Source of the DNA: Escherichia coli
Lineage (GTDB): Bacteria; Pseudomonadota; Gammaproteobacteria; Enterobacterales; Enterobacteriaceae
Assembly (NCBI RefSeq): GCF_013122565.1
Contig: NZ_CP053258.1
Reading direction: 5' to 3' (one strand)
Length of the DNA stretch: 64,000 nucleotides
Shown: positions 1 through 57,517 of the stretch, piece after piece
Layout: the number at the start of each line of letters is the position of its first letter
Numbering within the stretch: the first letter of the stretch is position 1
Program-made: the position numbers and the translations under genes
Notes under the pieces: model-generated
Seen by the model: only the letters and a program-made list of their open reading frames with translations
What the model was told of the DNA's origin: nothing
Database searches by the model: none

Positions 1-7
1 TTGGGCA

Positions 8-763
8 ATGGCAGTCGGCGCGCCTTATGCCATTGCGGGTAACAATCACTGGGCGCGACGAGTCGTTAATGATGATTCCGAGGAAGCAGAGAATGATTGC
101 AAAAGTGAAGTTGAGTCCCTTGCTGACATGTGGGGCGTCTTTGATCGGGATTCGTTACTTGAGCAACTCTTAGCTTTGTTTGTTGCAGGGCATCGTTCAG
201 TTTATGAAGAACAGATCAAAAACGATAGCGAAATGCCGGATGCTGAATATCGCGCGTTCGCTCAGCAATTAGCCCAGAACGCGAAATCAAGTAGCGAAGC
301 GAAAGAGCGTTTGTGGCAGCTACAGATGGTCAGAAAAAATCGACGTAAAATATGCGATATAGATTTTTGTGCCTGGGATATGGTGCGTTTTGTCATGCTA
401 TGTAATAGCGGGGCGCAAGTGGGATACATTACCCAGCGTGAAATGGTCGATTTTTCGATGCTGGCAGCCAGACGCGTACAGCAACATTACAGAAGCTGGC
501 GCGAATTGGCCGGGCATTTTTTGCTGGCCCGTTGGTACTGGAAAGCAACGGATAAACGGCACCTGATTACCCATATTCTTTTTAAGAAAGCCATTACATC
601 TTTATTAAAAGAGCAGGGGAGTCCGTGGCGTACTTTACCCTGGGATACTCCATTACCTGAAGGAACAGAGACGGCTTTTGCCTGGGCTTGTGGCGTAAGC
701 ACTGCCGATGTAGTAGAGGTGCGATTGGATACACCAGATAAAGCAATCTACGAAGCGAATTGA
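8..763 (+). CDS. DUF1266-family protein (YbeU/YbeR-like); may be 5'-incomplete at window edge
   Basis: 251-aa ORF; reading frame stays open to position 2 so true start may lie upstream; sequence resembles DUF1266 proteins by eye; no gene recalled at this position in K-12. Confidence 0.5.
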   Translation: MAVGAPYAIAGNNHWARRVVNDDSEEAENDCKSEVESLADMWGVFDRDSLLEQLLALFVAGHRSVYEEQIKNDSEMPDAEYRAFAQQLAQNAKSSSEAKERLWQLQMVRKNRRKICDIDFCAWDMVRFVMLCNSGAQVGYITQREMVDFSMLAARRVQQHYRSWRELAGHFLLARWYWKATDKRHLITHILFKKAITSLLKEQGSPWRTLPWDTPLPEGTETAFAWACGVSTADVVEVRLDTPDKAIYEAN

Positions 764-811
764 TGCTCCAAATGATTGAACTTGTTTAATGACTGTGGCC
801 GGCTCTGAATG

Positions 812-842
812 AAAATTTCTCCGACATTCCTGTCGGAGAAAT
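812..842 (-). terminator. hairpin plus U-run downstream of loiP (intrinsic terminator candidate)
   Basis: inverted repeat tttctccgaca/tgtcggagaaa followed on minus strand by ttttcattc. Confidence 0.5.
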
Positions 843-848
843 ATGAAA

Positions 849-1607
849 TTACTTAACCCCATCCGCGCTCATGCGATCGCGAATATGCTGGGCGCGTTCG
901 GCGGATGCCGGGTGGTCGTCAAACATTGAGCTTTGACGGCCTTCTTCCAGCTTCGCCAGTTTTTCAAAGCTGGTGGCAAGACCTGCCGGGCTGATGCCGC
1001 GTTGGCGCAGAAGATCGTAAGAATAATCATCGGCTTCTGCTTCCTGGCGCTGGGAGAATTGCGAATTGACTAATTTCTCGCCCAGATCACCAAGTTGTGA
1101 TTGAGATAAACTGCCGACAATCCCGCCCGCAGAGGCCGCAGCTACTCGCACGGCATTTGTACCAAGCGCTACCTGCATCCCTTTCTTCACATGGCCTAAC
1201 GCCACGTGCCCCATTTCGTGACCGATCACCGCTTCGACTTCGTTATCCGTCATCATATCCATCAGCCCGCTATAGACGCGGATACAGCCGTTAGCCATTG
1301 CAAAGGCGTTCACATCCTTCGCCATATACACTTTGTAATTTACCGGCTGACCGTTGATATTGTTGCCTAGCGCATTGGCAATAGTTGTCAGACGTTTAGC
1401 ATATTCGCTATTGGCTGGCGCAATCGTCGCCTTGCTGTCCATCTCCTGACATGCCTGATCGCTCAGGGCTTTCACCTGCGCATCACTCAAACTGTAAGCC
1501 TGAAAAGCTTCCGCTCCTGATGAAAGCAGTCCGTTGGAGTCCATATTCTGGCAACCGGTCAGTACCGTTGCCACGCTCATTGCTACCAATAAGGCGCGAA
1601 TTTTCAT
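849..1607 (-). CDS. loiP: metalloprotease LoiP (M48 family, HEMGH motif)
   Basis: ORF track 849..1826; start moved to MKIRALLVAMS (signal peptide, 252 aa); HEMGHVALGH zinc motif. Confidence 0.9.
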   Translation of the reverse strand: MKIRALLVAMSVATVLTGCQNMDSNGLLSSGAEAFQAYSLSDAQVKALSDQACQEMDSKATIAPANSEYAKRLTTIANALGNNINGQPVNYKVYMAKDVNAFAMANGCIRVYSGLMDMMTDNEVEAVIGHEMGHVALGHVKKGMQVALGTNAVRVAAASAGGIVGSLSQSQLGDLGEKLVNSQFSQRQEAEADDYSYDLLRQRGISPAGLATSFEKLAKLEEGRQSSMFDDHPASAERAQHIRDRMSADGVK

Positions 1608-1884
1608 GTTTTCTCTTCCGCACAAGGTCAGGATTATTCTAAAAATGCGCCGTTTGCAGGTGAATCGACGCTCAGTCTCAGTATAAGGAAAAGCGCAGCA
1701 GACGGGCGAGAAGATTGCGCAACATGCGAGCATGATCCAGAGATTTCTGAAGCGGCAAAAGGATGTTCCATGTACATGACGCGCGGCTTGCGGTAAATTG
1801 TTGGCAAATTTTCCGGCGTAGCCCAAAACGCGCTGTCGTCAAGTCGTTAAGGGCGTGCCCTTCATCATCCGATCTGGAGTCAAA

Positions 1885-3876
1885 ATGTCCTCACGTAAAG
1901 AGCTTGCCAATGCTATTCGTGCGCTGAGCATGGACGCAGTACAGAAAGCCAAATCCGGTCACCCGGGTGCCCCTATGGGTATGGCTGACATTGCCGAAGT
2001 CCTGTGGCGTGATTTCCTGAAACACAACCCGCAGAATCCGTCCTGGGCTGACCGTGACCGCTTCGTGCTGTCCAACGGCCACGGCTCCATGCTGATCTAC
2101 AGCCTGCTGCACCTCACCGGTTACGATCTGCCGATGGAAGAACTGAAAAACTTCCGTCAGCTGCACTCTAAAACTCCGGGCCACCCGGAAGTGGGTTACA
2201 CCGCTGGTGTGGAAACCACCACCGGTCCGCTGGGTCAGGGTATTGCCAACGCAGTCGGTATGGCGATTGCAGAAAAAACGCTGGCGGCGCAGTTTAACCG
2301 TCCGGGCCACGACATTGTCGACCACTACACCTACGCCTTCATGGGCGACGGCTGCATGATGGAAGGCATCTCCCACGAAGTTTGCTCTCTGGCGGGTACG
2401 CTGAAGCTGGGTAAACTGATTGCATTCTACGATGACAACGGTATTTCTATCGATGGTCACGTTGAAGGCTGGTTCACCGACGACACCGCAATGCGTTTCG
2501 AAGCTTACGGCTGGCACGTTATTCGCGACATCGACGGTCATGACGCAGCATCCATCAAACGCGCAGTAGAAGAAGCGCGCGCAGTGACTGACAAACCGTC
2601 CCTGCTGATGTGCAAAACCATCATCGGTTTCGGTTCCCCGAACAAAGCCGGTACCCACGATTCCCACGGTGCGCCGCTGGGCGACGCTGAAATTGCCCTG
2701 ACCCGCGAACAGCTGGGCTGGAAATACGCGCCGTTCGAAATCCCGTCTGAAATCTATGCTCAGTGGGATGCGAAAGAAGCAGGCCAGGCGAAAGAATCCG
2801 CATGGAACGAGAAATTCGCTGCTTACGCGAAAGCTTATCCGCAGGAAGCCGCTGAATTTACCCGCCGTATGAAAGGCGAAATGCCGTCTGACTTCGACGC
2901 TAAAGCGAAAGAGTTCATCGCTAAACTTCAGGCTAATCCGGCGAAAATCGCCAGCCGTAAAGCGTCTCAGAATGCTATTGAAGCGTTCGGCCCGCTGTTG
3001 CCGGAATTCCTCGGCGGCTCTGCTGACCTGGCACCGTCTAACCTAACTCTGTGGTCTGGTTCTAAAGCAATCAACGAAGATGCTGCGGGTAACTACATCC
3101 ATTACGGTGTTCGCGAGTTCGGTATGACCGCGATTGCTAACGGTATCTCCCTGCACGGTGGTTTCCTGCCGTACACCTCCACCTTCCTGATGTTTGTGGA
3201 ATACGCACGTAACGCCGTACGTATGGCTGCGCTGATGAAACAGCGTCAGGTTATGGTTTACACCCATGACTCCATCGGTCTGGGCGAAGATGGCCCGACT
3301 CACCAGCCGGTAGAGCAGGTTGCTTCTCTGCGCGTGACCCCGAACATGTCTACATGGCGTCCGTGTGACCAGGTTGAATCCGCGGTTGCGTGGAAATACG
3401 GTGTTGAGCGTCAGGACGGCCCGACTGCGCTGATCCTCTCCCGTCAGAACCTGGCGCAGCAGGAGCGTACCGAAGAGCAGCTGGCAAACATCGCGCGCGG
3501 TGGTTATGTGCTGAAAGACTGTGTCGGTCAGCCGGAACTGATCTTCATCGCGACCGGTTCTGAAGTTGAACTGGCTGTCGCTGCCTACGAAAAACTGACT
3601 GCTGAAGGCGTGAAAGCGCGCGTGGTTTCCATGCCGTCTACCGACGCATTCGACAAGCAGGACGCGGCTTACCGTGAGTCTGTCCTGCCGAAAGCGGTTA
3701 CTGCACGCGTTGCGGTAGAAGCGGGTATTGCTGACTACTGGTACAAGTATGTTGGCCTGAACGGTGCTATCGTCGGCATGACCACCTTCGGTGAATCTGC
3801 TCCGGCAGAGCTGCTGTTTGAAGAGTTCGGCTTCACCGTTGACAACGTTGTTGCGAAAGCCAAAGCGCTGCTGTAA
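1885..3876 (+). CDS. tktA: transketolase 1
   Basis: 663 aa from [12 protein letters not shown]; RBS ggagt upstream; matches TktA as recalled. Confidence 0.95.
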
Positions 3877-3895
3877 TCAGTAAGACGTTTTGTGA

Positions 3896-4243
<348 letters not shown>

Positions 4244-4245
4244 CA

Positions 4246-4270
4246 AGGGCCGCAAATGCGGTCCTTTTTT
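4246..4270 (+). terminator. hairpin plus T-run (third, degenerate copy of the BIME hairpin)
   Basis: aagggccgcaaatgcggtcc followed by ttttttatt. Confidence 0.5.
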
Positions 4271-5177
4271 ATTTAGTTGAGATAAACGGAACGGTGCTGC
4301 CGGGGATCATGGTATCGGGCAGTTTACCGTCCCAACGTTCGGCAGTGGTGAGGGCTACAAGTCCGGGATTATCCCGCAGAGCTTCACCGCGCAGGCGGAT
4401 TGCTTCTGCTTCAGCCGCACTTTTTAAACGAATAGTTTCAGCCTCTGCCGCGCCTCTTACGCGAATAGTTTCCGCTTCTGCTTTGGCTGCCGCCAGTTTA
4501 CTGTCTGCTTCTGCCTGGGCCTGAGTTACCGCTATTTGCGCCTGGATTTTCTCTGTTTCCAGATTTTGCTTACGCGTGGCAATGGCGACTTCTGCTTTCA
4601 TTCGGTCTTCAATCGACTTTTCATAAGCGTCAGAAAAATCAATATTTTCAATCTGGACCCCGTCAATTACCACTGGCCCAACAACCGCTTTGCGCATCGC
4701 ATTTTGCAGATCCTGAACCAGTTTTGTACGATCCTGTACGGCGCTGATGGCGGTATATTGGCCGAAAACGTTCTCCAGTTGAGTTGGCAACTGACGGACA
4801 ATCAGACGATCTTTTAATGCTTCAATGGTGTTGTAGGTGGTATAAACCGCGCCTGCTTCTGAAGGTTTAATGTGGAAGCTGACTGATACTGTCATTTGTG
4901 CCGGTTGCTGGTCGCGGCTGTAGGCCTGTAATCCCTGATAGACCACAGCCTGATTACGCGTGGAAATTTTCTCCACGCTTTCCATAAACGGGATCTTAAA
5001 ACCCAGACCCGGCTCGGCAACTTTTACGATTTTTCCGTAGCGCAGCAAAATGCCGCGTTCACCTTCATTAACGGTGTAATACGAGAGAAATGGCAGCACA
5101 ACCACGGCAAGCACGCCAATGGCGATAGCAATAGATTTTTGAGGGCGAAATGAGGTTATAGAAACAGGTGCTTTCAT
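4269..5177 (-). CDS. SPFH/band-7 (prohibitin/HflC-like) membrane protein
   Basis: 302 aa; N-terminal TM helix, SPFH core, Ala/Glu-rich C-terminal repeats; not YqiK/QmcA/HflKC by sequence recall. Confidence 0.75.
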   Translation of the reverse strand: MKAPVSITSFRPQKSIAIAIGVLAVVVLPFLSYYTVNEGERGILLRYGKIVKVAEPGLGFKIPFMESVEKISTRNQAVVYQGLQAYSRDQQPAQMTVSVSFHIKPSEAGAVYTTYNTIEALKDRLIVRQLPTQLENVFGQYTAISAVQDRTKLVQDLQNAMRKAVVGPVVIDGVQIENIDFSDAYEKSIEDRMKAEVAIATRKQNLETEKIQAQIAVTQAQAEADSKLAAAKAEAETIRVRGAAEAETIRLKSAAEAEAIRLRGEALRDNPGLVALTTAERWDGKLPDTMIPGSTVPFISTK

Positions 5178-39040: not shown

Positions 39041-40243
39041 ATGCAAAGTGTTGATGTAGCCATTGTTGGCGGCGGCATGGTGGGGCTGGCGGTTGCCTGC
39101 GGCTTACAGGGGAGCGGCTTACGCGTTGCCGTACTGGAGCAGCGCGTACCGGAACCTCTGGCGGTAGATGCACCACCACAACTGCGCGTTTCGGCTATCA
39201 ATGCCGCCAGCGAAAAATTACTCACCCGTCTTGGCGTCTGGCAGGACATTCTCTCTCGTAGGGCCAGTTGCTATCACGGTATGGAAGTGTGGGACAAAGA
39301 CAGTTTTGGTCACATTTCGTTTGACGATCAAAGCATGGGCTATAACCATCTTGGGCATATCATTGAAAACTCAGTGATTCACTACGCGCTGTGGAACAAA
39401 GCGCAGCAGTCGTCAGATATCACTCTGTTGGCCCCCGCAGAATTACAGCAGGTCGCCTGGGGAGAAAATGAAACCTTCCTGACGTTGAAAGATGGCAGTA
39501 TGTTAACGGCGCGTCTGGTGATTGGCGCGGACGGCGCTAATTCCTGGTTGCGCAACAAAGCCGATATTCCGCTGACTTTCTGGGATTATCAGCATCACGC
39601 GCTGGTGGCGACCATTCGCACGGAAGAACCGCATGATGCGGTGGCGCGGCAGGTTTTCCATGGCGAAGGCATTCTGGCCTTTTTACCGCTTAGCGATCCG
39701 CATCTTTGCTCGATTGTCTGGTCACTGTCGCCAGAGGAAGCGCAGCGGATGCAGCAGGCAGGGGAAGACGAATTTAATCGCGCGTTAAATATCGCTTTTG
39801 ATAATCGCCTGGGCTTATGCAAGGTTGAGAGCGAGCGTCAGGTGTTCCCGCTAACGGGGCGTTATGCGCGCCAGTTTGCCGCGCACCGTCTGGCGCTGGT
39901 GGGCGACGCCGCGCATACCATTCACCCGCTGGCGGGGCAGGGGGTAAATCTCGGCTTTATGGATGCTGCAGAGCTGATTGCTGAACTGAAACGGTTGCAT
40001 CGTCAGGGTAAAGACATCGGGCAGTACATTTACCTGCGTCGCTATGAACGTAGCCGCAAGCACAGCGCGGCGCTGATGCTGGCTGGTATGCAGGGATTCC
40101 GCGATCTGTTTTCCGGTACCAATCCGGCGAAAAAACTGCTGCGTGATATTGGTCTGAAACTGGCCGACACGCTTCCTGGCGTTAAATCACAACTTATCCG
40201 CCAGGCAATGGGATTAAACGATTTGCCTGAATGGCTGCGTTAA
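39041..40243 (+). CDS. ubiI: 2-octaprenylphenol hydroxylase
   Basis: 400 aa. Confidence 0.95.
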   Translation: MQSVDVAIVGGGMVGLAVACGLQGSGLRVAVLEQRVPEPLAVDAPPQLRVSAINAASEKLLTRLGVWQDILSRRASCYHGMEVWDKDSFGHISFDDQSMGYNHLGHIIENSVIHYALWNKAQQSSDITLLAPAELQQVAWGENETFLTLKDGSMLTARLVIGADGANSWLRNKADIPLTFWDYQHHALVATIRTEEPHDAVARQVFHGEGILAFLPLSDPHLCSIVWSLSPEEAQRMQQAGEDEFNRALNIAFDNRLGLCKVESERQVFPLTGRYARQFAAHRLALVGDAAHTIHPLAGQGVNLGFMDAAELIAELKRLHRQGKDIGQYIYLRRYERSRKHSAALMLAGMQGFRDLFSGTNPAKKLLRDIGLKLADTLPGVKSQLIRQAMGLNDLPEWLR

Positions 40244-40286
40244 AAATTTCTCTTCTGCTGTTTATTTGATACCCATCACACTTTCA

Positions 40287-40322
40287 TCTCCCGGTTTTTT
40301 CGCCGGGAGATTTTCCTCATTT
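40287..40322 (+). terminator. ubiI intrinsic terminator
   Basis: tctcccgg ttttttcg ccgggaga followed by ttttcctcattt. Confidence 0.65.
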
Positions 40323-40689
40323 GAAATAAACTAATTTCACCTCCGTTTTCGCATTATATTTTCTAATGTCACGAATTTTTGATTTAGTGTTTTTTGACAT
40401 TTTTTCAGCTCTTAATATTGCCTTATTCAAATTAACTCTCTCATCACATCATCTTTATATAGAAATTGGTGTGTTTTTTGGTTTTTTATTCCGTTGCGAT
40501 TTTGGCGTTTTTTAACCATAAGCTAATGTGATGATCAATTTTACCTTATGGTTAACAGTCTGTTTCGGTGGTAAGTTCAGGCAAAAGAGAACGATTGCGT
40601 TGGGGACCGGGAGTGGCTCCGATGCTGGGTTTCGTGGTGATAATTTCACCATGAAAAGTTGTCAGCCCCGCTTATTCAATGAGGACAAG

Positions 40690-41784
40690 ATGGCACAACA
40701 GACTCCTTTGTACGAACAACACACGCTTTGCGGCGCTCGCATGGTGGATTTCCACGGCTGGATGATGCCGCTGCATTACGGTTCGCAAATCGACGAACAT
40801 CATGCGGTACGTACCGATGCCGGAATGTTTGATGTGTCACATATGACCATCGTCGATCTTCGCGGCAGCCGCACCCGGGAGTTTCTGCGTTATCTGCTGG
40901 CGAACGATGTGGCGAAGCTCACCAAAAGCGGCAAAGCCCTTTACTCGGGGATGTTGAATGCCTCTGGCGGTGTGATAGATGATCTCATCGTCTACTACTT
41001 TACTGAAGATTTCTTCCGCCTCGTTGTTAACTCCGCCACCCGCGAAAAAGACCTCTCCTGGATTACCCAACACGCTGAACCTTTCGGCATCGAAATTACC
41101 GTTCGCGATGACCTTTCCATGATTGCCGTGCAAGGGCCGAATGCACAGGCAAAAGCTGCCACACTGTTTAATGACGCCCAGCGTCAGGCGGTGGAAGGGA
41201 TGAAACCGTTCTTTGGCGTGCAGGCGGGGGATCTGTTTATTGCCACCACTGGTTATACCGGTGAAGCGGGCTATGAAATTGCGCTGCCCAATGAAAAAGC
41301 GGCCGATTTCTGGCGCGCGCTGGTGGAAGCGGGCGTTAAGCCATGCGGCCTGGGCGCGCGTGACACGCTGCGTCTGGAAGCTGGCATGAATTTGTATAGT
41401 CAGGAGATGGACGAAACCATCTCTCCTTTAGCCGCCAACATGGGCTGGACCATCGCCTGGGAACCGGCAGATCGTGACTTTATCGGTCGTGAAGCTCTGG
41501 AAGCGCAGCGTGAACATGGCACAGAAAAACTGGTTGGTCTGGTGATGACCGAAAAAGGCGTGCTGCGTAATGAACTGCCGGTACGTTTTACCGATGCGCA
41601 GGGCAACCAGCATGAAGGCATTATCACCAGCGGGACTTTCTCCCCGACGCTGGGTTACAGCATTGCGCTGGCGCGCGTGCCGGAAGGTATTGGTGAAACA
41701 GCGATTGTGCAAATTCGCAACCGTGAAATGCCGGTTAAAGTGACGAAACCTGTTTTTGTGCGTAACGGCAAAGCCGTCGCGTGA
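40690..41784 (+). CDS. gcvT: glycine cleavage T protein (aminomethyltransferase)
   Basis: 364 aa from [11 protein letters not shown]. Confidence 0.95.
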
Positions 41785-41807
41785 TTTACTTTTTTGGAGA
41801 TTGATTG

Positions 41808-42197
41808 ATGAGCAACGTACCAGCAGAACTGAAATACAGCAAAGAACACGAATGGCTGCGTAAAGAAGCCGACGGCACTTATACCGTTGGCATCACCGAA
41901 CACGCTCAGGAGTTGTTGGGCGATATGGTGTTTGTTGACCTGCCGGAAGTGGGCGCGACGGTTAGCGCGGGCGATGACTGCGCGGTTGCCGAATCGGTAA
42001 AAGCGGCGTCAGACATTTATGCGCCAGTAAGCGGTGAAATCGTGGCGGTAAACGACGTACTGAGCGATTCCCCGGAACTGGTGAACAGCGAACCGTATGC
42101 AGGCGGCTGGATTTTCAAAATCAAAGCCAGCGATGAAAGCGAACTGGAATCACTGCTGGATGCGACCGCATACGAAGCATTGTTAGAAGACGAGTAA
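41808..42197 (+). CDS. gcvH: glycine cleavage H protein
   Basis: 129 aa from [10 protein letters not shown]. Confidence 0.95.
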
Positions 42198-42314
42198 CGG
42201 CTTTATTCCTCTTCTGCGGGAGAGGATCAGGGTGAGGAAATTTACGCCTCACCCTCACTCTCTTCGTAAGGAGAGAGGTTCACAATTCACTGCACGTTTC
42301 AGGAACCATCGCTC

Positions 42315-45188
42315 ATGACACAGACGTTAAGCCAGCTTGAAAATAGCGGCGCTTTTATTGAACGCCATATCGGACCGGACGCCGCGCAACAGCAAGAAAT
42401 GCTGAATGCCGTTGGCGCACAATCGTTAAACGCGCTGACCGGCCAGATTGTACCGAAAGATATTCAGCTTGCGACCCCGCCGCAGGTTGGCGCACCGGCG
42501 ACCGAATACGCCGCGCTGGCGGAACTCAAGGCTATTGCCAGTCGCAATAAACGCTTCACGTCTTACATCGGCATGGGTTACACCGCCGTGCAGCTACCGC
42601 CGGTTATCCTGCGTAACATGCTGGAAAATCCGGGCTGGTATACCGCGTATACTCCGTATCAACCTGAAGTCTCCCAGGGCCGCCTTGAGGCACTGCTCAA
42701 TTTCCAGCAGGTAACGCTGGATTTAACCGGGCTGGATATGGCCTCTGCTTCTCTTCTTGACGAAGCCACCGCTGCCGCCGAAGCAATGGCGATGGCGAAA
42801 CGCGTCAGCAAACTGAAAAATGCCAACCGCTTCTTCGTGGCTTCCGATGTGCATCCGCAAACGCTGGATGTGGTACGTACTCGTGCCGAAACCTTTGGTT
42901 TTGAAGTGATTGTCGATGATGCGCAAAAAGTGCTCGACCACCAGGACGTCTTCGGCGTGCTGTTACAGCAGGTCGGCACTACTGGTGAAATTCACGACTA
43001 CACCACGCTTATTAGCGAACTGAAATCACGCAAAATTGTGGTCAGTGTCGCCGCCGATATTATGGCGCTGGTGCTGTTAACTGCGCCGGGTAAACAGGGC
43101 GCGGATATTGTCTTTGGTTCGGCGCAACGTTTCGGCGTGCCGATGGGCTACGGAGGCCCACACGCGGCATTCTTTGCGGCGAAAGATGAATACAAACGCT
43201 CAATGCCGGGCCGTATTATCGGTGTATCGAAAGATGCAGCTGGCAATACCGCACTGCGCATGGCGATGCAGACTCGCGAGCAACATATTCGTCGTGAGAA
43301 AGCGAACTCCAACATTTGTACTTCCCAGGTGCTGCTGGCAAACATCGCCAGCCTGTATGCCGTTTATCACGGCCCGGTTGGCCTGAAACGTATCGCTAAC
43401 CGCATTCACCGTCTGACCGATATCCTGGCGGCGGGCCTGCAACAAAAAGGTCTGAAACTGCGCCATGCGCACTATTTCGACACTCTGTGTGTGGAAGTGG
43501 CCGACAAGGCGGGCGTACTGGCGCGTGCCGAAGCGGCTGAAATCAACCTGCGTAGCGATATCCTGAACGCGGTTGGGATCACCCTTGATGAAACCACCAC
43601 GCGCGAAAACGTGATGCAGCTTTTCAGCGTACTGCTGGGGGATAACCACGGCCTGGACATCGACACGCTGGACAAAGACGTGGCTCACGACAGCCGCTCT
43701 ATCCAGCCTGCGATGCTGCGCGACGACGAAATCCTCACCCATCCGGTGTTTAATCGCTACCACAGCGAAACCGAAATGATGCGCTATATGCACTCGCTGG
43801 AGCGTAAAGATCTGGCGCTGAATCAGGCGATGATCCCGCTGGGTTCCTGCACTATGAAACTGAACGCCGCCGCCGAGATGATCCCCATCACCTGGCCGGA
43901 ATTTGCTGAACTGCATCCGTTCTGCCCGCCGGAGCAGGCCGAAGGTTATCAGCAGATGATTGCGCAGCTGGCTGACTGGCTGGTGAAACTGACCGGTTAC
44001 GACGCCGTTTGTATGCAGCCGAACTCTGGCGCACAGGGCGAATACGCGGGCCTGCTGGCGATTCGTCATTATCATGAAAGCCGCAACGAAGGGCATCGCG
44101 ATATCTGCCTGATCCCGGCTTCTGCGCACGGCACTAACCCTGCTTCTGCACATATGGCAGGAATGCAGGTGGTGGTTGTGGCGTGTGATAAAAACGGAAA
44201 TATCGATCTGACTGATCTGCGCGCGAAAGCCGAACAGGCAGGTGATAATCTCTCCTGCATCATGGTGACCTATCCTTCCACCCACGGTGTGTATGAAGAA
44301 ACGATCCGTGAAGTGTGTGAAGTCGTGCATCAGTTCGGCGGTCAGGTTTACCTTGATGGCGCGAACATGAACGCCCAGGTTGGCATCACCTCGCCAGGCT
44401 TTATTGGCGCGGACGTTTCGCACCTCAACCTGCATAAAACTTTCTGCATTCCGCACGGCGGTGGTGGTCCGGGTATGGGACCGATCGGCGTGAAAGCGCA
44501 TCTGGCACCGTTTGTACCGGGTCATAGCGTGGTACAAATTGAAGGCATGTTAACCCGTCAGGGCGCGGTTTCTGCGGCACCGTTCGGTAGCGCCTCTATC
44601 CTGCCAATCAGCTGGATGTACATCCGCATGATGGGCGCAGAAGGGCTGAAAAAAGCAAGCCAGGTGGCAATTCTTAACGCCAACTATATTGCCAGTCGCC
44701 TGCAGGATGCCTTCCCGGTGCTGTATACCGGTCGTGACGGTCGCGTGGCGCACGAATGTATTCTCGATATTCGTCCGTTGAAAGAAGAAACCGGCATCAG
44801 CGAGCTGGATATTGCCAAGCGCCTGATCGACTACGGTTTCCACGCGCCGACGATGTCGTTCCCGGTGGCGGGTACGCTGATGGTTGAACCGACTGAATCT
44901 GAAAGCAAAGTGGAACTGGATCGCTTTATCGACGCGATGCTGGCTATCCGCGCAGAAATTGACCAGGTGAAAGCCGGTATCTGGCCGCTGGAAGACAACC
45001 CGCTGGTGAACGCGCCGCACATTCAGAGCGAACTGGTCGCCGAGTGGGCGCATCCGTACAGCCGTGAAGTTGCGGTATTCCCGGCAGGCGTGGCAGACAA
45101 ATACTGGCCGACAGTGAAACGTCTGGATGATGTTTACGGCGACCGTAACCTGTTCTGCTCCTGCGTACCGATAAGCGAATACCAGTAA
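42315..45188 (+). CDS. gcvP: glycine dehydrogenase (decarboxylating) P protein
   Basis: 957 aa. Confidence 0.95.
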
Positions 45189-45210
45189 TTCACTGATTCG
45201 ACTATCTTCT

Positions 45211-45232
45211 AAAGGCGCTTCGGCGCCTTTTT
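45211..45232 (+). terminator. gcvP intrinsic terminator
   Basis: aaaggcgcttcggcgccttttt. Confidence 0.8.
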
Positions 45233-45314
45233 AGCTTGTTAATAAAGTGCGCTTTGTGTGTCGGATGAAGCGTAAATATAAAATCCTGGAGTTCAATATA
45301 TGACAGGAGCGCCA

Positions 45315-45340
45315 GGCCTGATGAGCGGGGCGCATCAGGC
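45315..45340. repeat. REP-like palindrome in the gcvP-bglA spacer
   Basis: gcctgatg agcggggcg catcaggc. Confidence 0.5.
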
Positions 45341-45351
45341 ACATCGGGTAA

Positions 45352-46812
<1,461 letters not shown>

Positions 46813-46829
46813 TTACAGGAAATAGTACC

Positions 46830-47141
46830 ATGCAGCCAAACGACATCACTTTTTTTCAACGTTTCCAGGATGACATTCTGGCTGGGCGTAAAACCATCAC
46901 CATCCGCGACGAGTCTGAATCGCACTTCAAAACGGGTGATGTGCTTCGTGTCGGGCGTTTTGAAGATGACGGTTATTTTTGCACGATTGAAGTCACCGCA
47001 ACCTCAACCGTAACGCTGGATACGCTGACGGAAAAACATGCAGAGCAGGAAAATATGACCCTGACTGAACTGAAAAAGGTCATTGCCGACATCTATCCCG
47101 GTCAGACACAGTTTTATGTGATTGAATTTAAATGTCTTTAA
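46830..47141 (+). CDS. yqfB: ASCH-domain protein
   Basis: 103 aa. Confidence 0.9.
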
Positions 47142-47301
47142 ATTGAACTCACGCCTGTTAGTTGAAATTTCGCATTTAATTTCATGATTTTTAGGGGATT
47201 AGTCTCAAATCAGAATTTATTTTAGCTAACAGGTGTTCACTGGAACTATTCTCAGTTACGCTGGAGAGGTATACATGTGCGTGTACGTTTCTCCGGAGTA
47301 A

Positions 47302-47964
<663 letters not shown>

Positions 47965-47981
47965 TGGGTATGCCTTTGTAG

Positions 47982-48013
47982 GCCTGATAAGACGCGCCAG
48001 CGTCGCATCAGGC
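47982..48013. repeat. REP element
   Basis: gcctgataagacgcgccagcgtcgcatcaggc between yqfA and ygfZ. Confidence 0.8.
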
Positions 48014-48040
48014 GATAAATGCGTGATGCGACACAGAGAT

Positions 48041-49021
48041 TTACTCTTCGAGCGAATACGGCAGCGGCTCGATATGCAATGTATTCGCATCGTCACGTAC
48101 GCGGAAGATGCTGTCCGGTTCCATATCGTTATTCATGACGACCTGTACCACGACCTGACCATCTTCCAGTTTTACCGCAGCCAGCACCGTACCAGTACGA
48201 CGCCAGTTCTCGCCCATTTTCAGCTCTAAGTCTTCACCAGCTTCCGGCAGTCGGCTGGCACTACCTGTCAGCAACCAGAGCGCGCGTTTGTTGGCACCAC
48301 GGAATTTTGCTCGCGCCACCATCTCTTGTCCGGTATAGCAGCCTTTCTTAAAGCTGATACCGCCCAGCGCCTGGAGATTGGTCGCCTGTGGAATAAACTG
48401 CCCGCTGTTGGCGGCATCAATCACCGGGAAACCCGCTTCAATGTTTAATGCCAGCCACTGTTGGCTATTGTTCAGTTCCGCTTCACCGCGCAGTTTGTCG
48501 GTCAGCATATTGGCAGTAGCTTCATCGGTTACGATCAGGAAACGTTCTGCCGGGTGTTCAAACCATAGCAAAGTGGTCGCGCCTTCTTTAACTACCTGTT
48601 TTTCTTTCGAAGGCAGTTCACTAAAGAGATTGGCCAGTGCGGCGCGCGCCTGAAAACCGGCAACACCAAGCAGCACACGCTCGTCGTCTGGCGCGATGGT
48701 CACTTTAGAGAATACCGCATATTTTTTCAGTTCAGTCAGCTGCGGTTCACGCACGCTGCGCCGTTCAATCCACGCAAAGCCATCGCCGTCGCGGAACAGA
48801 CGTAAATTGCTCCACATTTTACCTTTGGCGTCGCAATGGGCGGCCAGCAGGTGCTGATCTTCTGTCATCTGGCTGACGTCTGCTGTCACCTGACCCTGCA
48901 TATATTTTTCGCTGTCCGCGCCAGTAATGGTGGCAAGCGCCCAGTCATCAAGCGTCATCAGTGTCAGTGGCAAACGGGCAGAAGCCGTAGGCTGACGGGG
49001 AGGAAAAGGTGTAAAAGCCAT
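48041..49021 (-). CDS. ygfZ: folate-binding Fe-S cluster repair protein
   Basis: 326 aa. Confidence 0.9.
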
Positions 49022-49251
49022 AATAGAGTCCTGAGTTGCTTAACGGCGTATTAATCACTAATGGTAAAAGAGCTATGAGGCAATGCAAGTGCTTTCACTA
49101 CGCGATCTGTGCCTTCTGCGAGGCGACTTCCAAAAAAATGAAGCCCTTGAATTGTTGTGAATTAATTTCGCGATCGCGATGGTGTTTACTGATATTCCCG
49201 TAAAAGAAGTCGAAAAACACGTTACAATAGCGGGGTACTGGATTTTCGTGA

Positions 49252-49918
<667 letters not shown>

Positions 49919-49957
49919 AGATGACGGCAAAGCATATGCGCTAAGCCGTCAGTGACA

Positions 49958-50479
49958 TCAGGCGTAATGCTCTGCCATTTCGTTGAGGATTTGCTCGCAC
50001 CAGCTCTGAATACGCTCGTCGCTAAGGTCATACTGGTTAGTTTCGTCCAGCGCCAGCCCCACGAACAGTTGCCCGTCAGCAATCACCGGTTTCGGGCTGG
50101 TAAATTCATATCCTTCCGTTGGCCAGTAGCCGACGAACTTCACGCCTTTGGTCGAGAGTTTGTCATGCAGCATACCGAGCGCATCGAGGAACCACTCGCC
50201 GTATCCCAGTTGATCGCCAAGCCCATACAGCGCAACAATTTTACCTTCAAGGTTCAGGTCGTCGAGCTGATCCCAGACGGCTTCCCAGTCTTCCTGGATT
50301 TCACCAAAATCCCAGGTCGGGATACCCAGAATGAGCACATCGTACTGCTCCATTAATTTCGGGGAGTCGTCCTTGAGGTTATGTAAGGTCACCAGTTCTG
50401 GGCCGATAATATCGCGGATTTTTTCTGCCGCCATTTCGGTGTAACAGGTGCTGGAACCGTAAAAAAGACCCATATTCAT
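49958..50479 (-). CDS. fldB: flavodoxin 2
   Basis: 173 aa. Confidence 0.9.
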
Positions 50480-50590
50480 AACGTAAGCTTCTCGATTCTG
50501 CTGTGGCTTTTGCAGCTAGTGTATCAGAATCGCTTTAGTCACGGCACAATAAGGCATAATGGATCAAATGAGTGACCATAAGGGGCGCAA

Positions 50591-51487
50591 GTGAAACAGG
50601 ATCTGGCATGCATCGAGCAGTTTCTTGATGCTCTGTGGCTGGAAAAAAATCTGGCTGAAAATACGTTGAACGCTTACCGTCGCGATCTGTCAATGATGGT
50701 GGAGTGGTTGCATCACCGCGGGTTGACGCTGGCGACGGCGCAAAGTGACGATTTGCAGGCATTACTGGCAGAACGGCTGGAGGGCGGGTATAAAGCCACC
50801 AGCTCAGCGCGTTTGCTGAGTGCAGTGCGCCGATTGTTCCAGTATCTTTATCGCGAAAAGTTTCGTGAAGACGATCCCAGTGCGCATCTCGCTTCACCGA
50901 AATTGCCCCAGCGTTTGCCAAAAGATTTAAGCGAAGCGCAGGTCGAACGTTTATTACAGGCACCATTAATTGATCAGCCACTGGAGCTACGCGATAAAGC
51001 CATGCTTGAAGTGTTGTATGCTACCGGGCTGCGTGTCTCTGAACTGGTCGGGCTGACAATGAGTGATATCAGCCTGCGTCAGGGCGTAGTGCGGGTCATT
51101 GGTAAAGGCAACAAAGAGCGCCTGGTGCCGTTAGGTGAAGAGGCGGTTTACTGGTTGGAGACCTATCTGGAACATGGGCGTCCGTGGCTGCTGAATGGTG
51201 TGTCAATTGACGTGTTGTTTCCCAGCCAGCGTGCGCAGCAGATGACGCGACAGACCTTCTGGCACCGCATTAAACATTATGCCGTGCTGGCGGGTATCGA
51301 CAGCGAAAAGCTGTCCCCGCATGTGTTGCGTCACGCTTTTGCCACTCATTTATTAAATCATGGTGCGGATTTACGCGTGGTGCAGATGCTACTGGGCCAC
51401 AGCGATCTCTCCACCACGCAAATTTATACGCATGTCGCTACCGAGCGTCTGCGGCAACTTCATCAACAGCATCACCCGCGGGCGTGA
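50591..51487 (+). CDS. xerD: tyrosine recombinase XerD
   Basis: 298 aa; GTG start; core context with dsbC-recJ. Confidence 0.95.
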   Translation: MKQDLACIEQFLDALWLEKNLAENTLNAYRRDLSMMVEWLHHRGLTLATAQSDDLQALLAERLEGGYKATSSARLLSAVRRLFQYLYREKFREDDPSAHLASPKLPQRLPKDLSEAQVERLLQAPLIDQPLELRDKAMLEVLYATGLRVSELVGLTMSDISLRQGVVRVIGKGNKERLVPLGEEAVYWLETYLEHGRPWLLNGVSIDVLFPSQRAQQMTRQTFWHRIKHYAVLAGIDSEKLSPHVLRHAFATHLLNHGADLRVVQMLLGHSDLSTTQIYTHVATERLRQLHQQHHPRA

Positions 51488-51511
51488 TGTCTGAAAAGAA
51501 CGGGAAGATTT

Positions 51512-52222
51512 ATGAAGAAAGGTTTTATGTTGTTTACTTTGTTAGCGGCGTTTTCAGGCTTTGCTCAGGCTGATGACGCGGCAATTCAACAAACGTTAGC
51601 CAAAATGGGCATCAAAAGCAGCGATATTCAGCCCGCGCCCGTAGCTGGCATGAAGACAGTTCTGACTAACAGCGGCGTGTTGTACATCACCGATGATGGT
51701 AAACATATCATTCAGGGGCCAATGTATGACGTTAGTGGCACGGCTCCGGTCAATGTCACCAATAAGATGCTGTTAAAGCAGTTGAATGCGCTTGAAAAAG
51801 AGATGATCGTTTATAAAGCGCCGCAGGAAAAACACGTCATCACCGTGTTTACTGATATTACCTGTGGTTACTGCCACAAACTGCATGAGCAAATGGCAGA
51901 CTACAACGCGCTGGGGATCACCGTACGTTATCTTGCTTTCCCGCGCCAGGGGCTGGATAGCGATGCTGAGAAAGAAATGAAAGCTATCTGGTGTGCGAAA
52001 GACAAAAACAAAGCGTTTGATGATGTGATGGCAGGTAAAAGCGTCGCACCAGCCAGTTGCGACGTGGATATTGCCGACCATTACGCACTTGGCGTCCAGC
52101 TTGGCGTTAGCGGTACTCCGGCAGTTGTGCTGAGCAATGGCACACTTGTTCCGGGTTACCAGCCGCCGAAAGACATGAAAGAATTCCTCGACGAACACCA
52201 AAAAATGACCAGCGGTAAATAA
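51512..52222 (+). CDS. dsbC: thiol:disulfide interchange protein DsbC
   Basis: 236 aa, signal peptide, CGYC active site. Confidence 0.95.
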   Translation: MKKGFMLFTLLAAFSGFAQADDAAIQQTLAKMGIKSSDIQPAPVAGMKTVLTNSGVLYITDDGKHIIQGPMYDVSGTAPVNVTNKMLLKQLNALEKEMIVYKAPQEKHVITVFTDITCGYCHKLHEQMADYNALGITVRYLAFPRQGLDSDAEKEMKAIWCAKDKNKAFDDVMAGKSVAPASCDVDIADHYALGVQLGVSGTPAVVLSNGTLVPGYQPPKDMKEFLDEHQKMTSGK

Positions 52223-52227
52223 TTCGC

Positions 52228-53961
52228 GTGAAACAACAGATACAACTTCGTCGCCGTGAAGTCGATGAAACGGCAGACTTGCCCGCTGAATTGCCTCCCT
52301 TGCTGCGCCGTTTATACGCCAGCCGAGGAGTACGCAGTGCGCAAGAACTGGAACGCAGTGTTAAAGGTATGTTGCCCTGGCAGCAACTGAGCGGCGTCGA
52401 AAAGGCCGTTGAGATCCTTTACAACGCTTTTCGCGAAGGAACGCGGATTATTGTGGTCGGTGATTTCGACGCCGACGGTGCCACCAGCACGGCTCTAAGC
52501 GTGCTGGCGATGCGCTCGCTTGGTTGCAGCAATATCGACTACCTGGTTCCAAACCGTTTCGAAGACGGTTACGGCTTAAGCCCGGAAGTGGTCGATCAGG
52601 CCCATGCCCGTGGCGCGCAGTTAATTGTCACGGTGGATAACGGTATTTCCTCCCATGCAGGGGTTGAACACGCTCGTTCGTTGGGCATTCCGGTTATTGT
52701 TACCGATCACCATTTGCCGGGCGACACATTACCCGCGGCGGAAGCGATCATTAACCCTAACTTGCGCGACTGCAATTTCCCGTCGAAATCACTGGCAGGC
52801 GTGGGGGTGGCGTTTTATCTGATGCTGGCGCTGCGCACCTTTTTGCGCGATCAGGGCTGGTTTGATGAGCGCGGCATCGCAATTCCTAATCTGGCAGAAC
52901 TGCTGGATCTGGTCGCGCTGGGGACAGTGGCGGACGTCGTGCCGCTGGACGCTAATAATCGCATTCTGACCTGGCAGGGGATGAGTCGCATCCGTGCCGG
53001 AAAGTGCCGTCCGGGAATCAAAGCGCTGCTGGAAGTGGCGAACCGCGATGCGCAAAAACTCGCCGCCAGCGATTTAGGTTTTGCGCTGGGGCCACGTCTC
53101 AATGCTGCCGGGAGACTGGACGATATGTCCGTCGGTGTGGCGCTGTTGCTGTGCGACAACATCGGCGAAGCGCGCGTGCTGGCAAATGAACTCGATGCCC
53201 TAAACCAGACGCGAAAAGAGATCGAACAAGGAATGCAGGTTGAAGCCCTGACCCTGTGCGAGAAACTGGAGCGCAGCCGTGACACGCTACCCGGCGGGCT
53301 GGCAATGTATCACCCCGAATGGCATCAGGGCGTTGTCGGTATTCTGGCTTCGCGCATCAAAGAGCGTTTTCACCGTCCGGTTATCGCGTTTGCGCCAGCA
53401 GGTGACGGTACGCTGAAAGGTTCCGGTCGCTCCATTCAGGGGCTACATATGCGTGATGCGCTGGAGCGATTAGACACACTCTACCCCGGCATGATGCTCA
53501 AGTTTGGCGGTCATGCGATGGCGGCGGGTTTGTCGCTGGAAGAGGATAAATTCGAACTCTTTCAACAACGGTTTGGCGAGCTGGTTACTGAGTGGCTGGA
53601 CCCTTCGCTATTGCAAGGCGAAGTGGTGTCAGACGGTCCGTTAAGCCCGGCCGAAATGACCATGGAAGTGGCGCAGCTGCTGCGCGATGCTGGCCCGTGG
53701 GGGCAGATGTTCCCGGAGCCGCTGTTTGACGGTCATTTCCGTCTGCTGCAACAGCGGCTGGTGGGCGAACGTCATTTGAAAGTCATGGTCGAACCGGTCG
53801 GCGGCGGTCCGCTGCTGGATGGTATTGCTTTTAATGTCGATACCGCCCTCTGGCCGGATAACGGCGTGCGCGAAGTGCAACTGGCTTACAAGCTCGATAT
53901 CAACGAGTTTCGCGGCAACCGCAGCCTGCAAATTATCATCGACAATATCTGGCCAATTTAG
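52228..53961 (+). CDS. recJ: ssDNA-specific exonuclease RecJ
   Basis: 577 aa; GTG start. Confidence 0.95.
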   Translation: MKQQIQLRRREVDETADLPAELPPLLRRLYASRGVRSAQELERSVKGMLPWQQLSGVEKAVEILYNAFREGTRIIVVGDFDADGATSTALSVLAMRSLGCSNIDYLVPNRFEDGYGLSPEVVDQAHARGAQLIVTVDNGISSHAGVEHARSLGIPVIVTDHHLPGDTLPAAEAIINPNLRDCNFPSKSLAGVGVAFYLMLALRTFLRDQGWFDERGIAIPNLAELLDLVALGTVADVVPLDANNRILTWQGMSRIRAGKCRPGIKALLEVANRDAQKLAASDLGFALGPRLNAAGRLDDMSVGVALLLCDNIGEARVLANELDALNQTRKEIEQGMQVEALTLCEKLERSRDTLPGGLAMYHPEWHQGVVGILASRIKERFHRPVIAFAPAGDGTLKGSGRSIQGLHMRDALERLDTLYPGMMLKFGGHAMAAGLSLEEDKFELFQQRFGELVTEWLDPSLLQGEVVSDGPLSPAEMTMEVAQLLRDAGPWGQMFPEPLFDGHFRLLQQRLVGERHLKVMVEPVGGGPLLDGIAFNVDTALWPDNGVREVQLAYKLDINEFRGNRSLQIIIDNIWPI

Positions 53962-54051
53962 CGTCATCTTCTCTATAAAAAAGAGCGTGGATTGGGTACA
54001 ATCCCGCTCTTATCACCGCATTTTGACTAGCTCAATAAAAGAAATCAGACC

Positions 54052-55150
54052 ATGTTTGAAATTAATCCGGTAAATAATCGCATTCAGGACCTCACGGAAC
54101 GCTCCGACGTTCTTAGGGGGTATCTTTGACTACGACGCCAAGAAAGAGCGTCTGGAAGAAGTAAACGCCGAGCTGGAACAGCCGGATGTCTGGAACGAAC
54201 CCGAACGCGCACAGGCGCTGGGTAAAGAGCGTTCCTCCCTCGAAGCCGTTGTCGACACCCTCGACCAAATGAAGCAGGGGCTGGAAGATGTTTCTGGTCT
54301 GCTGGAACTGGCTGTAGAAGCTGACGACGAAGAAACCTTTAACGAAGCCGTTGCTGAACTCGACGCCCTGGAAGAAAAACTGGCGCAGCTTGAGTTCCGC
54401 CGTATGTTCTCTGGCGAATATGACAGCGCCGACTGCTACCTCGATATTCAGGCGGGGTCTGGCGGTACGGAAGCACAGGACTGGGCGAGCATGCTTGAGC
54501 GTATGTATCTGCGCTGGGCAGAATCGCGTGGTTTCAAAACTGAAATCATCGAAGAGTCGGAAGGTGAAGTGGCGGGTATTAAATCCGTGACGATCAAAAT
54601 CTCCGGCGATTACGCTTACGGCTGGCTGCGTACAGAAACTGGCGTTCACCGCCTGGTGCGTAAGAGCCCGTTTGACTCCGGCGGTCGTCGCCATACGTCG
54701 TTCAGCTCCGCGTTTGTTTACCCGGAAGTCGATGACGATATCGATATCGAAATCAACCCGGCGGATCTGCGCATTGACGTTTATCGCGCGTCCGGCGCGG
54801 GCGGTCAGCACGTTAACCGTACCGAATCTGCGGTGCGTATTACCCACATCCCGACCGGGATCGTGACCCAGTGCCAGAACGACCGTTCCCAGCACAAGAA
54901 CAAAGACCAGGCCATGAAGCAGATGAAAGCGAAGCTTTATGAACTGGAGATGCAGAAGAAAAATGCCGAGAAACAGGCGATGGAAGATAACAAATCCGAC
55001 ATCGGCTGGGGCAGCCAGATTCGTTCTTATGTCCTTGATGACTCCCGCATTAAAGATCTGCGCACCGGGGTAGAAACCCGCAACACGCAGGCCGTGCTGG
55101 ACGGCAGCCTGGATCAATTTATCGAAGCAAGTTTGAAAGCAGGGTTATGA
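54052..55150 (+). CDS. prfB: peptide chain release factor 2, with programmed +1 frameshift
   Basis: frame 0 ATG at 54052 runs 25 codons to CTT TGA (54124-54129) preceded by SD-like AGGGGG; +1 frame continues from 54128 to 55150; combined 365 aa. Confidence 0.9.
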
Positions 55151-55159
55151 GGAACCAAC

Positions 55160-56677
55160 ATGTCTGAACAACACGCACAGGGCGCTGACGCGGTAGTCGA
55201 TCTTAACAATGAACTGAAAACGCGTCGTGAGAAGCTGGCGAACCTGCGCGAGCAGGGGATTGCCTTCCCGAACGATTTCCGTCGCGATCATACCTCTGAC
55301 CAATTGCACGCAGAATTCGACGGTAAAGAGAACGAAGAACTGGAAGCGTTGAACATCGAAGTCGCCGTTGCTGGCCGCATGATGACCCGCCGTATTATGG
55401 GTAAAGCGTCTTTCGTTACCCTGCAGGATGTGGGTGGCCGCATTCAGCTGTACGTTGCCCGTGACGATCTGCCGGAAGGCGTTTACAACGAGCAGTTCAA
55501 AAAATGGGACCTCGGCGACATCCTCGGCGCGAAAGGTAAACTGTTCAAAACCAAAACCGGCGAACTGTCTATCCACTGTACCGAGCTGCGTCTACTGACC
55601 AAAGCACTGCGTCCGCTGCCGGATAAATTCCACGGCTTGCAGGATCAGGAAGCGCGCTATCGTCAGCGTTATCTGGATCTCATCTCTAACGATGAATCCC
55701 GTAACACCTTTAAAGTGCGCTCGCAGATCCTCTCTGGTATTCGCCAGTTCATGGTGAACCGCGGCTTTATGGAAGTTGAAACGCCGATGATGCAGGTGAT
55801 CCCTGGCGGTGCCGCTGCGCGTCCGTTTATCACCCACCATAACGCGCTGGATCTCGACATGTACCTGCGTATCGCGCCGGAACTGTACCTCAAGCGTCTG
55901 GTGGTCGGTGGCTTCGAGCGTGTATTCGAAATCAACCGTAACTTCCGTAACGAAGGTATCTCCGTACGTCATAACCCAGAGTTCACCATGATGGAACTCT
56001 ATATGGCTTACGCAGATTACAAAGATCTGATTGAGCTGACCGAATCGCTGTTCCGTACTCTGGCACAGGATATTCTCGGTAAGACGGAAGTGACCTACGG
56101 CGACGTGACGCTGGACTTCGGTAAACCGTTCGAAAAACTAACCATGCGTGAAGCGATCAAGAAATATCGCCCGGAAACCGACATGGCGGATCTGGACAAC
56201 TTCGACTCTGCGAAAGCGATTGCTGAATCTATCGGTATCCACGTTGAGAAGAGCTGGGGTCTGGGCCGTATCGTTACCGAGATCTTCGAAGAAGTGGCAG
56301 AAGCACATCTGATTCAGCCGACCTTCATTACTGAATATCCGGCAGAAGTTTCTCCGTTGGCGCGTCGTAACGACGTTAACCCGGAAATCACAGACCGCTT
56401 TGAGTTCTTCATTGGTGGTCGTGAAATCGGTAACGGCTTTAGCGAGCTGAATGACGCGGAAGATCAGGCGCAGCGCTTCCTGGATCAGGTTGCCGCGAAA
56501 GATGCAGGTGACGACGAAGCGATGTTCTACGATGAAGATTACGTCACCGCACTGGAACATGGCTTACCGCCGACAGCAGGTCTGGGGATTGGCATCGACC
56601 GTATGGTAATGCTGTTCACCAACAGCCATACCATCCGCGACGTTATTCTGTTCCCGGCGATGCGTCCGGTGAAATAA
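55160..56677 (+). CDS. lysS: lysyl-tRNA synthetase (constitutive)
   Basis: 505 aa. Confidence 0.95.
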
Positions 56678-56695
56678 GCATTACGTTATGCTCAC

Positions 56696-56721
56696 AACCC
56701 CGGCAAATGTCGGGGTTTTTT
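56696..56721 (+). terminator. lysS intrinsic terminator
   Basis: aaccccggcaaatgtcgggg followed by ttttttatt. Confidence 0.75.
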
Positions 56722-57268
56722 ATTTAAGCTGGGTAAATGCAGATAATCGTATTCTGGCTTCGCGATTTGTCGCCTGCATCACCATCCACGGACTGAACGC
56801 CCACGGCGTGGCATCAATACCGCGTAATACATCAGCTAAATCACACCATTGATAATCCATCACTTCATCATCGTTGATCTGTAACGCACTGGTGGTGCGT
56901 GCGGCAAATACCGGACACACTTCATTTTCCACAATGCCATTCGGATCGGTGGCGCGATAGCGAAAGTCAGGATAGATAGATTCAGGAGGCGTAATTTCCA
57001 CGCCAAGCTCATAACGGCAACGGCGGATCACCGCGTCTTCGTTGCTTTCTCCCAGTTGTGGGTGCCCACAAACCGAGTTAGTCCACACGCCAGGCCATGC
57101 TTTTTTGCTCAGTGCGCGGCGGGTAACTAATAATTGTCCTTTGGCATTAAACAGCCAACTGGAGAACGCGAGATGTAAGCGGGTGTCTGCCGTGTGTGCG
57201 GCATACTTTTCCAGCGTACCCGTGGGAACTCCCTGTGCATTCAATAAAATGACGTGTTCCGTTTGCAT
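56720..57268 (-). CDS. idi: isopentenyl-diphosphate delta-isomerase
   Basis: 182 aa. Confidence 0.9.
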
Positions 57269-57517
57269 AATTTCTCACATGTAATTCTGATCACTCATCA
57301 TTATAGATAATTGAAGAGTGAAATGATTAACCAAGTGAGCGTTTATCGACAACCGCCCGTTTTGAGCGGATGTCGACAGGTAAAAACCATTTAAAAAAGT
57401 AGCATCATATATTTGAAGCGACTTTCAATGGCCATTGCAACACAGTCAGAAATGACAGGAATAGAGAGAGTAAAAAGCAACAGCAGACTGAATATAGCGC
57501 GCATTAAAAAATTCATA

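Follow-up and report, generated by a model that had tools for sequence, protein, structure and literature searches.

Positions 2 to 763 of the window, the whole stretch of 64,000 nucleotides that was analyzed, are the distal half of a chromosomal accessory DUF1266 gene located between speB and loiP. The identity of the gene and the polymorphism of its locus, taken jointly, are nearly certain. The result is mainly an ordinary pan-genome observation: a minority of E. coli have a DUF1266 gene in the speB-loiP spacer, and the remaining strains carry REP elements there. The gene product is predicted to be a 520-aa bitopic inner-membrane lipoprotein, and the explanation as a whole, which combines identity, topology, mechanism and the history of the locus, has the balance of probability slightly on its side. 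A summary of the features at the left end of the window is shown in Table 1.

Table 1. Features in the first bases of the window and at the loiP border
Feature	Position	Strand	Basis or remark
3' part of the accessory DUF1266 gene (codons 268-520 and TGA at 761-763)	2..763	+	5' 801 bp outside the window
Pfam DUF1266 (PF06889) core, whole model matched	116..643	+	Pfam search
Codons of W392-D393-M394-V395-R396 ('AWDxxR' motif); D393 and R396 are two of the four invariant residues	374..388	+	Codons read in the window
Spacer between the convergent stops of the DUF1266 gene and loiP	764..848	.	Part of the variable segment, whose place is taken by REP elements in K-12
Terminator-like hairpin of loiP	815..842	-	Terminator scan of the orthologous locus; same letters in the window
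loiP, M48 metalloprotease, core gene, right edge of the variable segment	849..1607	-	Peptidase_M48; MKIRAL...DGVK-stop

The frame of the DUF1266 gene is free of stop codons from window base 2 through its TGA and leaves the window at its start, with no stop upstream within the window. The original prediction had described a 251-aa open reading frame that possibly extends past the window start; the frame does run off the edge, but the 253 codons in the window are only half of a gene of 520 codons. A full orthologue was found in NZ_CP033635 (1563 bp, 520 aa), with speB on one side and loiP on the other, and the window aligns without gaps to nucleotides 801-1563 of that gene at 98.7% identity. Membership in DUF1266, previously suggested from resemblance, was established by a Pfam search, in which the 253-aa translation matched the complete PF06889 profile (positions 1-175 of 175, residues 39-214 of the translation) with an E-value of 1.7e-30 and 106.9 bits, the gathering cut-off being 27 bits. 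The match was also obtained with the full-length orthologue. All invariant and nearly invariant columns of an alignment of 97 DUF1266 sequences are present in the query, which contains the family-wide residues W, GH, AWD..R, G..GY..E, R..W and P..W. In full-length numbering, W311, D393, R396 and W433 are invariant among the 97 proteins, and H331, E414, R444 and several tryptophans are invariant or nearly so across this diverse set. The sequence is already deposited in RefSeq under the generic name 'DUF1266 domain-containing protein' (e.g., WP_023141973.1). The gene is convergent with loiP, as had been proposed; loiP was identified by its Peptidase_M48 match (E 5.4e-26) and is followed by tkt (1885..3876, +).

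The distribution of the gene was determined by megablast with window positions 1-850 as query against 5426 complete E. coli genomes. The gene was found in 210 of them (3.9%), as a single chromosomal copy and always beside loiP, with 181 carriers at 95-99% identity and 29 at 90-95%. The same carrier count was obtained with the 5' half of the gene. The annotation in the 210 genomes is 'DUF1266 domain-containing protein', and loiP is annotated in all matches. Isolates of O103:H2 and O121:H19 are among the carriers. At least 3659 genomes have the full K-12-type junction, and shorter REP variants occur in others, which bears out the expectation that the gene is strain-specific content. The gene is also isolated, as stated earlier: it lies between loiP and, upstream, speB, which was seen in all the orthologous loci that were read, and neither a J-domain nor an Hsp70 gene adjoins it.

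The ends of loiP and speB in K-12 are at 3082671 and 3082877. The two genes are adjacent, as had been stated, but the gap is 205 bp of REP/BIME-type repeats and not the few tens of bp given at that time. An alignment shows this spacer to be unlike the gene, and no trace of the gene is present at the locus in K-12. When the first 6 kb of the window were compared with the K-12 locus by blastn, matches began only at base 849; similarity between the gene-bearing form and K-12 ends just past the speB stop codon and returns where loiP has its stop codon. Across genomes, the K-12 spacer sequence has tens of thousands of matches, in agreement with a make-up of REP-type repeats. One form of the locus, about 1.8 kb long, consists of the gene with its flanks; the other, of about 0.2 kb, is made up of REP/BIME repeats. 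The alignments show, and we infer as the way in which presence and absence arise, an exchange of the entire speB-loiP spacer. A deletion scar in K-12 was also considered and is ruled out, as the K-12 spacer consists of REP units without similarity to the gene. Among 100,044 species-representative genomes the family was found in two species only, Klebsiella spallanzanii and Leminorella grimontii.

The architecture of the full-length protein was studied in the orthologue, as the window encodes the DUF1266 part, predicted to be cytoplasmic, and the lipoprotein signal, the periplasmic domain and the transmembrane helix are all encoded upstream of it. Models and sequence patterns make it likely that a lipid-anchored periplasmic N-terminal domain is followed by a single transmembrane pass and a cytoplasmic, all-alpha DUF1266 domain. 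The N-terminus, MERTLPWKPLLCLLFLLSTG-C21-D22, fits the PROSITE PS51257-type lipoprotein pattern. Asp at position +2 of a lipoprotein is the classical inner-membrane retention signal. The orthologue carries both the lipobox and this Asp, the sequence pattern of an inner-membrane-retained lipoprotein, and its lipidation is predicted. Ten homologues, the most distant at 39% identity, were aligned, and T19, C21 and D22 proved invariant, with C52 and C92 close to it; the lipobox of E. coli (L-S-T-G-C) is less canonical than the L-T-A-C of the homologues. The AlphaFold2 model of the full-length orthologue, based on the ten-homologue alignment, has a pLDDT of 74.9 and shows an alpha+beta region (about 30-178), a disordered linker (183-207), a long helix (208-243) and an all-alpha region (264-505). 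The hydrophobic stretch 208-243 is modeled as one helix with acidic residues before and basic residues after it, from which a cytoplasmic DUF1266 domain and a periplasmic N-terminal domain are predicted. Residues 254-520, modeled on the 97 diverse DUF1266 sequences, reached a pLDDT of 93.2 and a pTM of 0.90.

The periplasmic alpha+beta domain (about 150 aa) is probably disulfide-bonded and, judged from its model, possibly NTF2-like. The domain was modeled with a pLDDT of 72-90, and Foldseek returned weak hits to 3kzt (E 0.07) and to Tai3 (4hz9, E 0.5, TM-target about 0.5). With these NTF2-/Tai3-like domains it shares a predicted arrangement of three helices on a four-stranded sheet and a periplasmic location, but the matches are non-significant (E 0.07-0.6) and the N-terminal domain is without a sequence relative outside the family. 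No relative of it was found in Pfam, NCBIfam or PDB, and a profile of its alignment retrieved only fragments of the same gene. The combination of lipoprotein signal, orphan periplasmic domain, transmembrane helix and DUF1266 is rare, with about five clusters at 50% identity among 1.8 billion representatives.

A phmmer search of 1.84 billion representatives returned 1196 proteins at E < 0.001. The N-terminal domain is common to only about five clusters of these matches; the rest match the DUF1266 part alone. Homologues at 39-53% identity retain the full architecture and all motifs. The orthologues P0006-P0011 (Klebsiella spallanzanii, Leminorella grimontii and metagenomes; 39-62% identity) have the same architecture and an invariant lipobox Cys-Asp, but their genes lie elsewhere: that of Klebsiella spallanzanii (51% identity) with marRAB/marC and an MFS transporter, others in a selAB context, unlike the speB-loiP locus. 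The Leminorella grimontii homologue (62% identity) keeps lipobox, transmembrane helix and DUF1266 domain, but the periplasmic domain is absent.

Outside the family, the closest domains (30-38% identity) are those of single-pass DUF1266 proteins of other bacteria (300-350 aa, e.g., P0017-P0049). These have a transmembrane helix and basic residues directly upstream of the domain and are predicted to be cytoplasmic and membrane-tethered, as here, but they have few residues beyond the membrane and neither lipobox nor periplasmic domain. Most of the nearest DUF1266-only relatives likewise have one N-terminal transmembrane helix followed by Arg/Lys, which makes a membrane-tethered cytoplasmic DUF1266 domain a common theme. 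A minority have N-termini that resemble secretion signals; the domain may therefore not always be cytoplasmic. A metagenomic contig (L011) carries two DUF1266 genes 2.4 kb apart (222-785 and 3196-4131), with an ISL3 transposase and a fragment of an HTH transposase on their flanks, which hints that some DUF1266 genes move with IS elements.

The proposed likeness to YbeU and YbeR of K-12 applies at the level of the family. The gene is a genuine PF06889 member, yet not of the YbeU/YbeR type found in the hscC cluster. Both share PF06889 and the motifs WG..R, GH, AWD..R, GY..E.E and R.YW with the protein described here, but they are only 23% (YbeU) and 21% (YbeR) identical to it and are thus distant paralogues. 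They are soluble proteins of 235 aa with neither signal peptide nor transmembrane segment, whereas the protein here has 520 aa, with a predicted lipoprotein signal, periplasmic domain and transmembrane helix (208-243). Their genes overlap downstream J-protein genes by 4 bp and are accompanied by Sel1-repeat genes and hscC, whereas the gene here stands alone between speB and loiP. The layout attributed to K-12, in which the ybeQ-hscC cluster combines DUF1266 genes with genes for J-domain and Hsp70 proteins, was found as described; the order is ybeQ-ybeR-djlB-ybeT-ybeU-djlC-hscC, where ybeQ and ybeT are Sel1-repeat genes. For hscC/djlBC, a Cd2+ phenotype is known. Within this cluster (L008, 4712-9664) ybeR-djlB and ybeU-djlC each overlap by 4 bp, a sign that the DUF1266/J-protein pairs may be translationally coupled; no discussion of these overlaps was found in the literature. 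The Hsp70 HscC, believed to act at the membrane, is stimulated by DjlC, a tail-anchored J-protein of the inner membrane (PMC8215388).

Outside this group, in unrelated taxa, fusions join DUF1266 to Ank repeats or to long arrays of TPR, and some DUF1266 genes adjoin or overlap TPR genes; TPR, Sel1 and Ank recur as fusion or adjacency partners. NCBIfam, PADLOC and PHROGs gave nothing beyond DUF1266 for the protein. Searches for relatives of solved structure (phmmer, and profiles of DUF1266 and of the N-terminal domain) gave noise only (E >= 0.03, calmodulin-binding helices of SK channels), and no solved structural relative of the DUF1266 fold was found. In the literature collection that was searched, the name DUF1266 was found in one paper only, in an expression table of the H-NS regulon, for another locus tag, and nothing functional was found on ybeU or on HscC in connection with phage defense. 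The all-alpha fold of DUF1266 is predicted with confidence and lacks a solved relative, and no member of the family has been studied; a membrane-tethered, stand-alone member with a defined (predicted) topology is a convenient entry point to the function of DUF1266.

The role that we favor for the DUF1266 domain, by analogy, is that of a protein-interaction module on the cytoplasmic side of the inner membrane. In the protein here, the domain would be tethered to the membrane directly, and the periplasmic domain may couple it to envelope conditions. This role is suggested because DUF1266 pairs elsewhere with TPR/Sel1 scaffolds and, in K-12, with the tail-anchored DjlB and DjlC of the Hsp70 HscC. 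As a whole, a membrane-tethered interaction role coupled to a periplasmic domain is tentative and is given a minor share of the probability. In none of the contexts examined does the gene have a TPR/Sel1, J-domain or Hsp70 neighbor, which counts against an interaction role, and the bitopic family has no common neighbor in the eight genomic contexts that were read. That the protein is a one-component transmembrane link from the periplasm to the cytoplasmic proteostasis machinery is quite improbable. The orphan periplasmic domain would then sense an envelope cue and reposition the cytoplasmic DUF1266 domain, which, with a fold absent from PDB, would recruit TPR/Sel1 or J-protein/Hsp70 (DjlB/DjlC-HscC) partners to the inner membrane. 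Were this true, it would be the first function for DUF1266 and would offer a natural handle on the unexplained HscC system.

The conserved polar residues H331, D393, R396, E414 and R444 could equally well form a catalytic or ligand site or an interaction surface. DUF1266 could accordingly be an enzyme or a small-molecule-binding domain, with an all-alpha fold not solved to date and a substrate at the inner face of the membrane. Such a function, which we regard as unlikely, would be in line with the near-invariance of these residues and of several tryptophans in the 97 sequences, with a compact and confident model (pLDDT 93, pTM 0.90) that no structural relative contradicts, and with the membrane tethering that is common in the family. 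The all-alpha domain resembles no catalytic family in sequence or fold, however, and its recurrent partners are the repeat scaffolds TPR, Sel1 and Ank, not metabolic genes.

Selection on the gene was estimated from dN/dS between alleles, which is 0.14-0.27 for the half in the window and 0.29-0.34 for the N-terminal half; over the full gene it is 0.19-0.24. These values indicate purifying selection; with 0.00-0.07 in the flanking core genes, the DUF1266 gene is under more relaxed selection than its neighbors. Some alleles are interrupted: codon 90 is a stop in the allele of NZ_CP086662 (94% group), which the annotation splits into two ORFs, and codon 462 is a stop in that of GCA_946060805.1. 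Synonymous divergence between lineages is 0.12-0.20 for the gene and 0.10-0.25 for speB, loiP and tkt when identical pairs of genomes are compared, with loiP above that range against GCA_946060805.1 (L006). We infer that the gene is an old resident of the locus that is repeatedly lost, rather than a recent import, which fits both a divergence similar to that of the flanking core genes and the nonsense alleles in some lineages. Its G+C content is 0.45-0.48, compared with 0.53-0.57 in the flanks. No true copy was found in plasmid and phage collections, where the 'plasmid' matches are 4-Mb Proteus records at 29% identity; neither an integrase nor repeat borders were seen at the insertion, which is bounded by the speB and loiP stop codons. 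An origin from a mobile element is ruled out by the lack of plasmid and phage copies and of an integrase, and by a dS of the gene similar to that of its flanks.

The same gene could be a decaying remnant, i.e., an old accessory gene that has ceased to be of use to E. coli and is disappearing through nonsense mutations and deletions. The low carrier frequency, the two interrupted alleles, the many truncated protein clusters (P0003-P0005, P0158-P0162) and a dN/dS several-fold above that of the flanking core genes all agree with decay. Against it, dN/dS stays well under 1 across a dS of up to 0.2, the dominant cluster (675 member sequences) is that of the intact 520-aa form, and the 39-53% identical homologues have kept architecture and motifs; decay is given a small probability.

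The last alternative is a protein of a conflict system, in which the periplasmic domain would neutralize a cell-wall toxin in the manner of Tai3, or the protein would be a membrane-bound anti-phage component. It draws on the weak Foldseek match of the N-terminal model to the T6SS immunity protein Tai3 (prob 0.97) and on similarly weak matches to other small alpha+beta periplasmic proteins, on the patchy, strain-variable distribution and low G+C content, and on integrases or transposases that adjoin some DUF1266 homologues, but it is very unlikely, as none of the contexts examined has an adjacent effector or toxin gene, PADLOC gave 0 families and PHROGs no meaningful match, the gene is not on phages or plasmids, the fold matches are far from significance for a fold common among periplasmic lipoproteins, and the Leminorella homologue lacks the periplasmic domain entirely.

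On the loiP side, a perfect hairpin with a 12-bp stem, ATTTCTCCGACA-GGAA-TGTCGGAGAAAT, followed by a T-run, lies 7 bp past the loiP stop codon. The terminator scan placed it at 9842-9815 of the orthologous locus (L001), and from its sequence it looks like the intrinsic terminator of loiP. The gene-bearing form has its own spacer, hairpin included, whereas K-12 has REP/BIME units instead; the hairpin is absent there, and the 3' end of loiP thus differs between the two forms of the locus.

Further differences in gene content were observed nearby. A gene for a 302-aa SPFH/Band_7 ('prohibitin family') protein lies between tkt and cmtB (4269..5177, -), where K-12 has a mere 313-bp gap. This segment is covered to at least 80% in 1368 of the 5426 genomes; the presence or absence of a second gene thus varies within 5 kb of the DUF1266 gene. 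Just upstream of the window start, the orthologous locus (L001, 6263-6994) encodes a predicted lipoprotein of 243 aa (...LLAGC) between speA and speB. It has no Pfam match, occurs in 3550 of the 5426 genomes independently of the DUF1266 gene, and is missing in K-12, whose speA and speB are 137 bp apart. In GCA_946060805.1, a more distant Escherichia-like genome with 94% flank identity, a GntR regulator and an MR_MLE enolase-family gene (L006, 114-4851) are located upstream of the lipoprotein gene and speB, where E. coli has speA. Among the 5426 complete E. coli genomes, the best match to the loiP-tkt part of the window (764..3900) reaches 97.6% identity, and that to the 20 kb at 40000..60000 (gcvP-recJ-lysS) 98.8%; with core genes at these identities, the window appears to come from an E. 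coli-like lineage that is thinly represented in this set.
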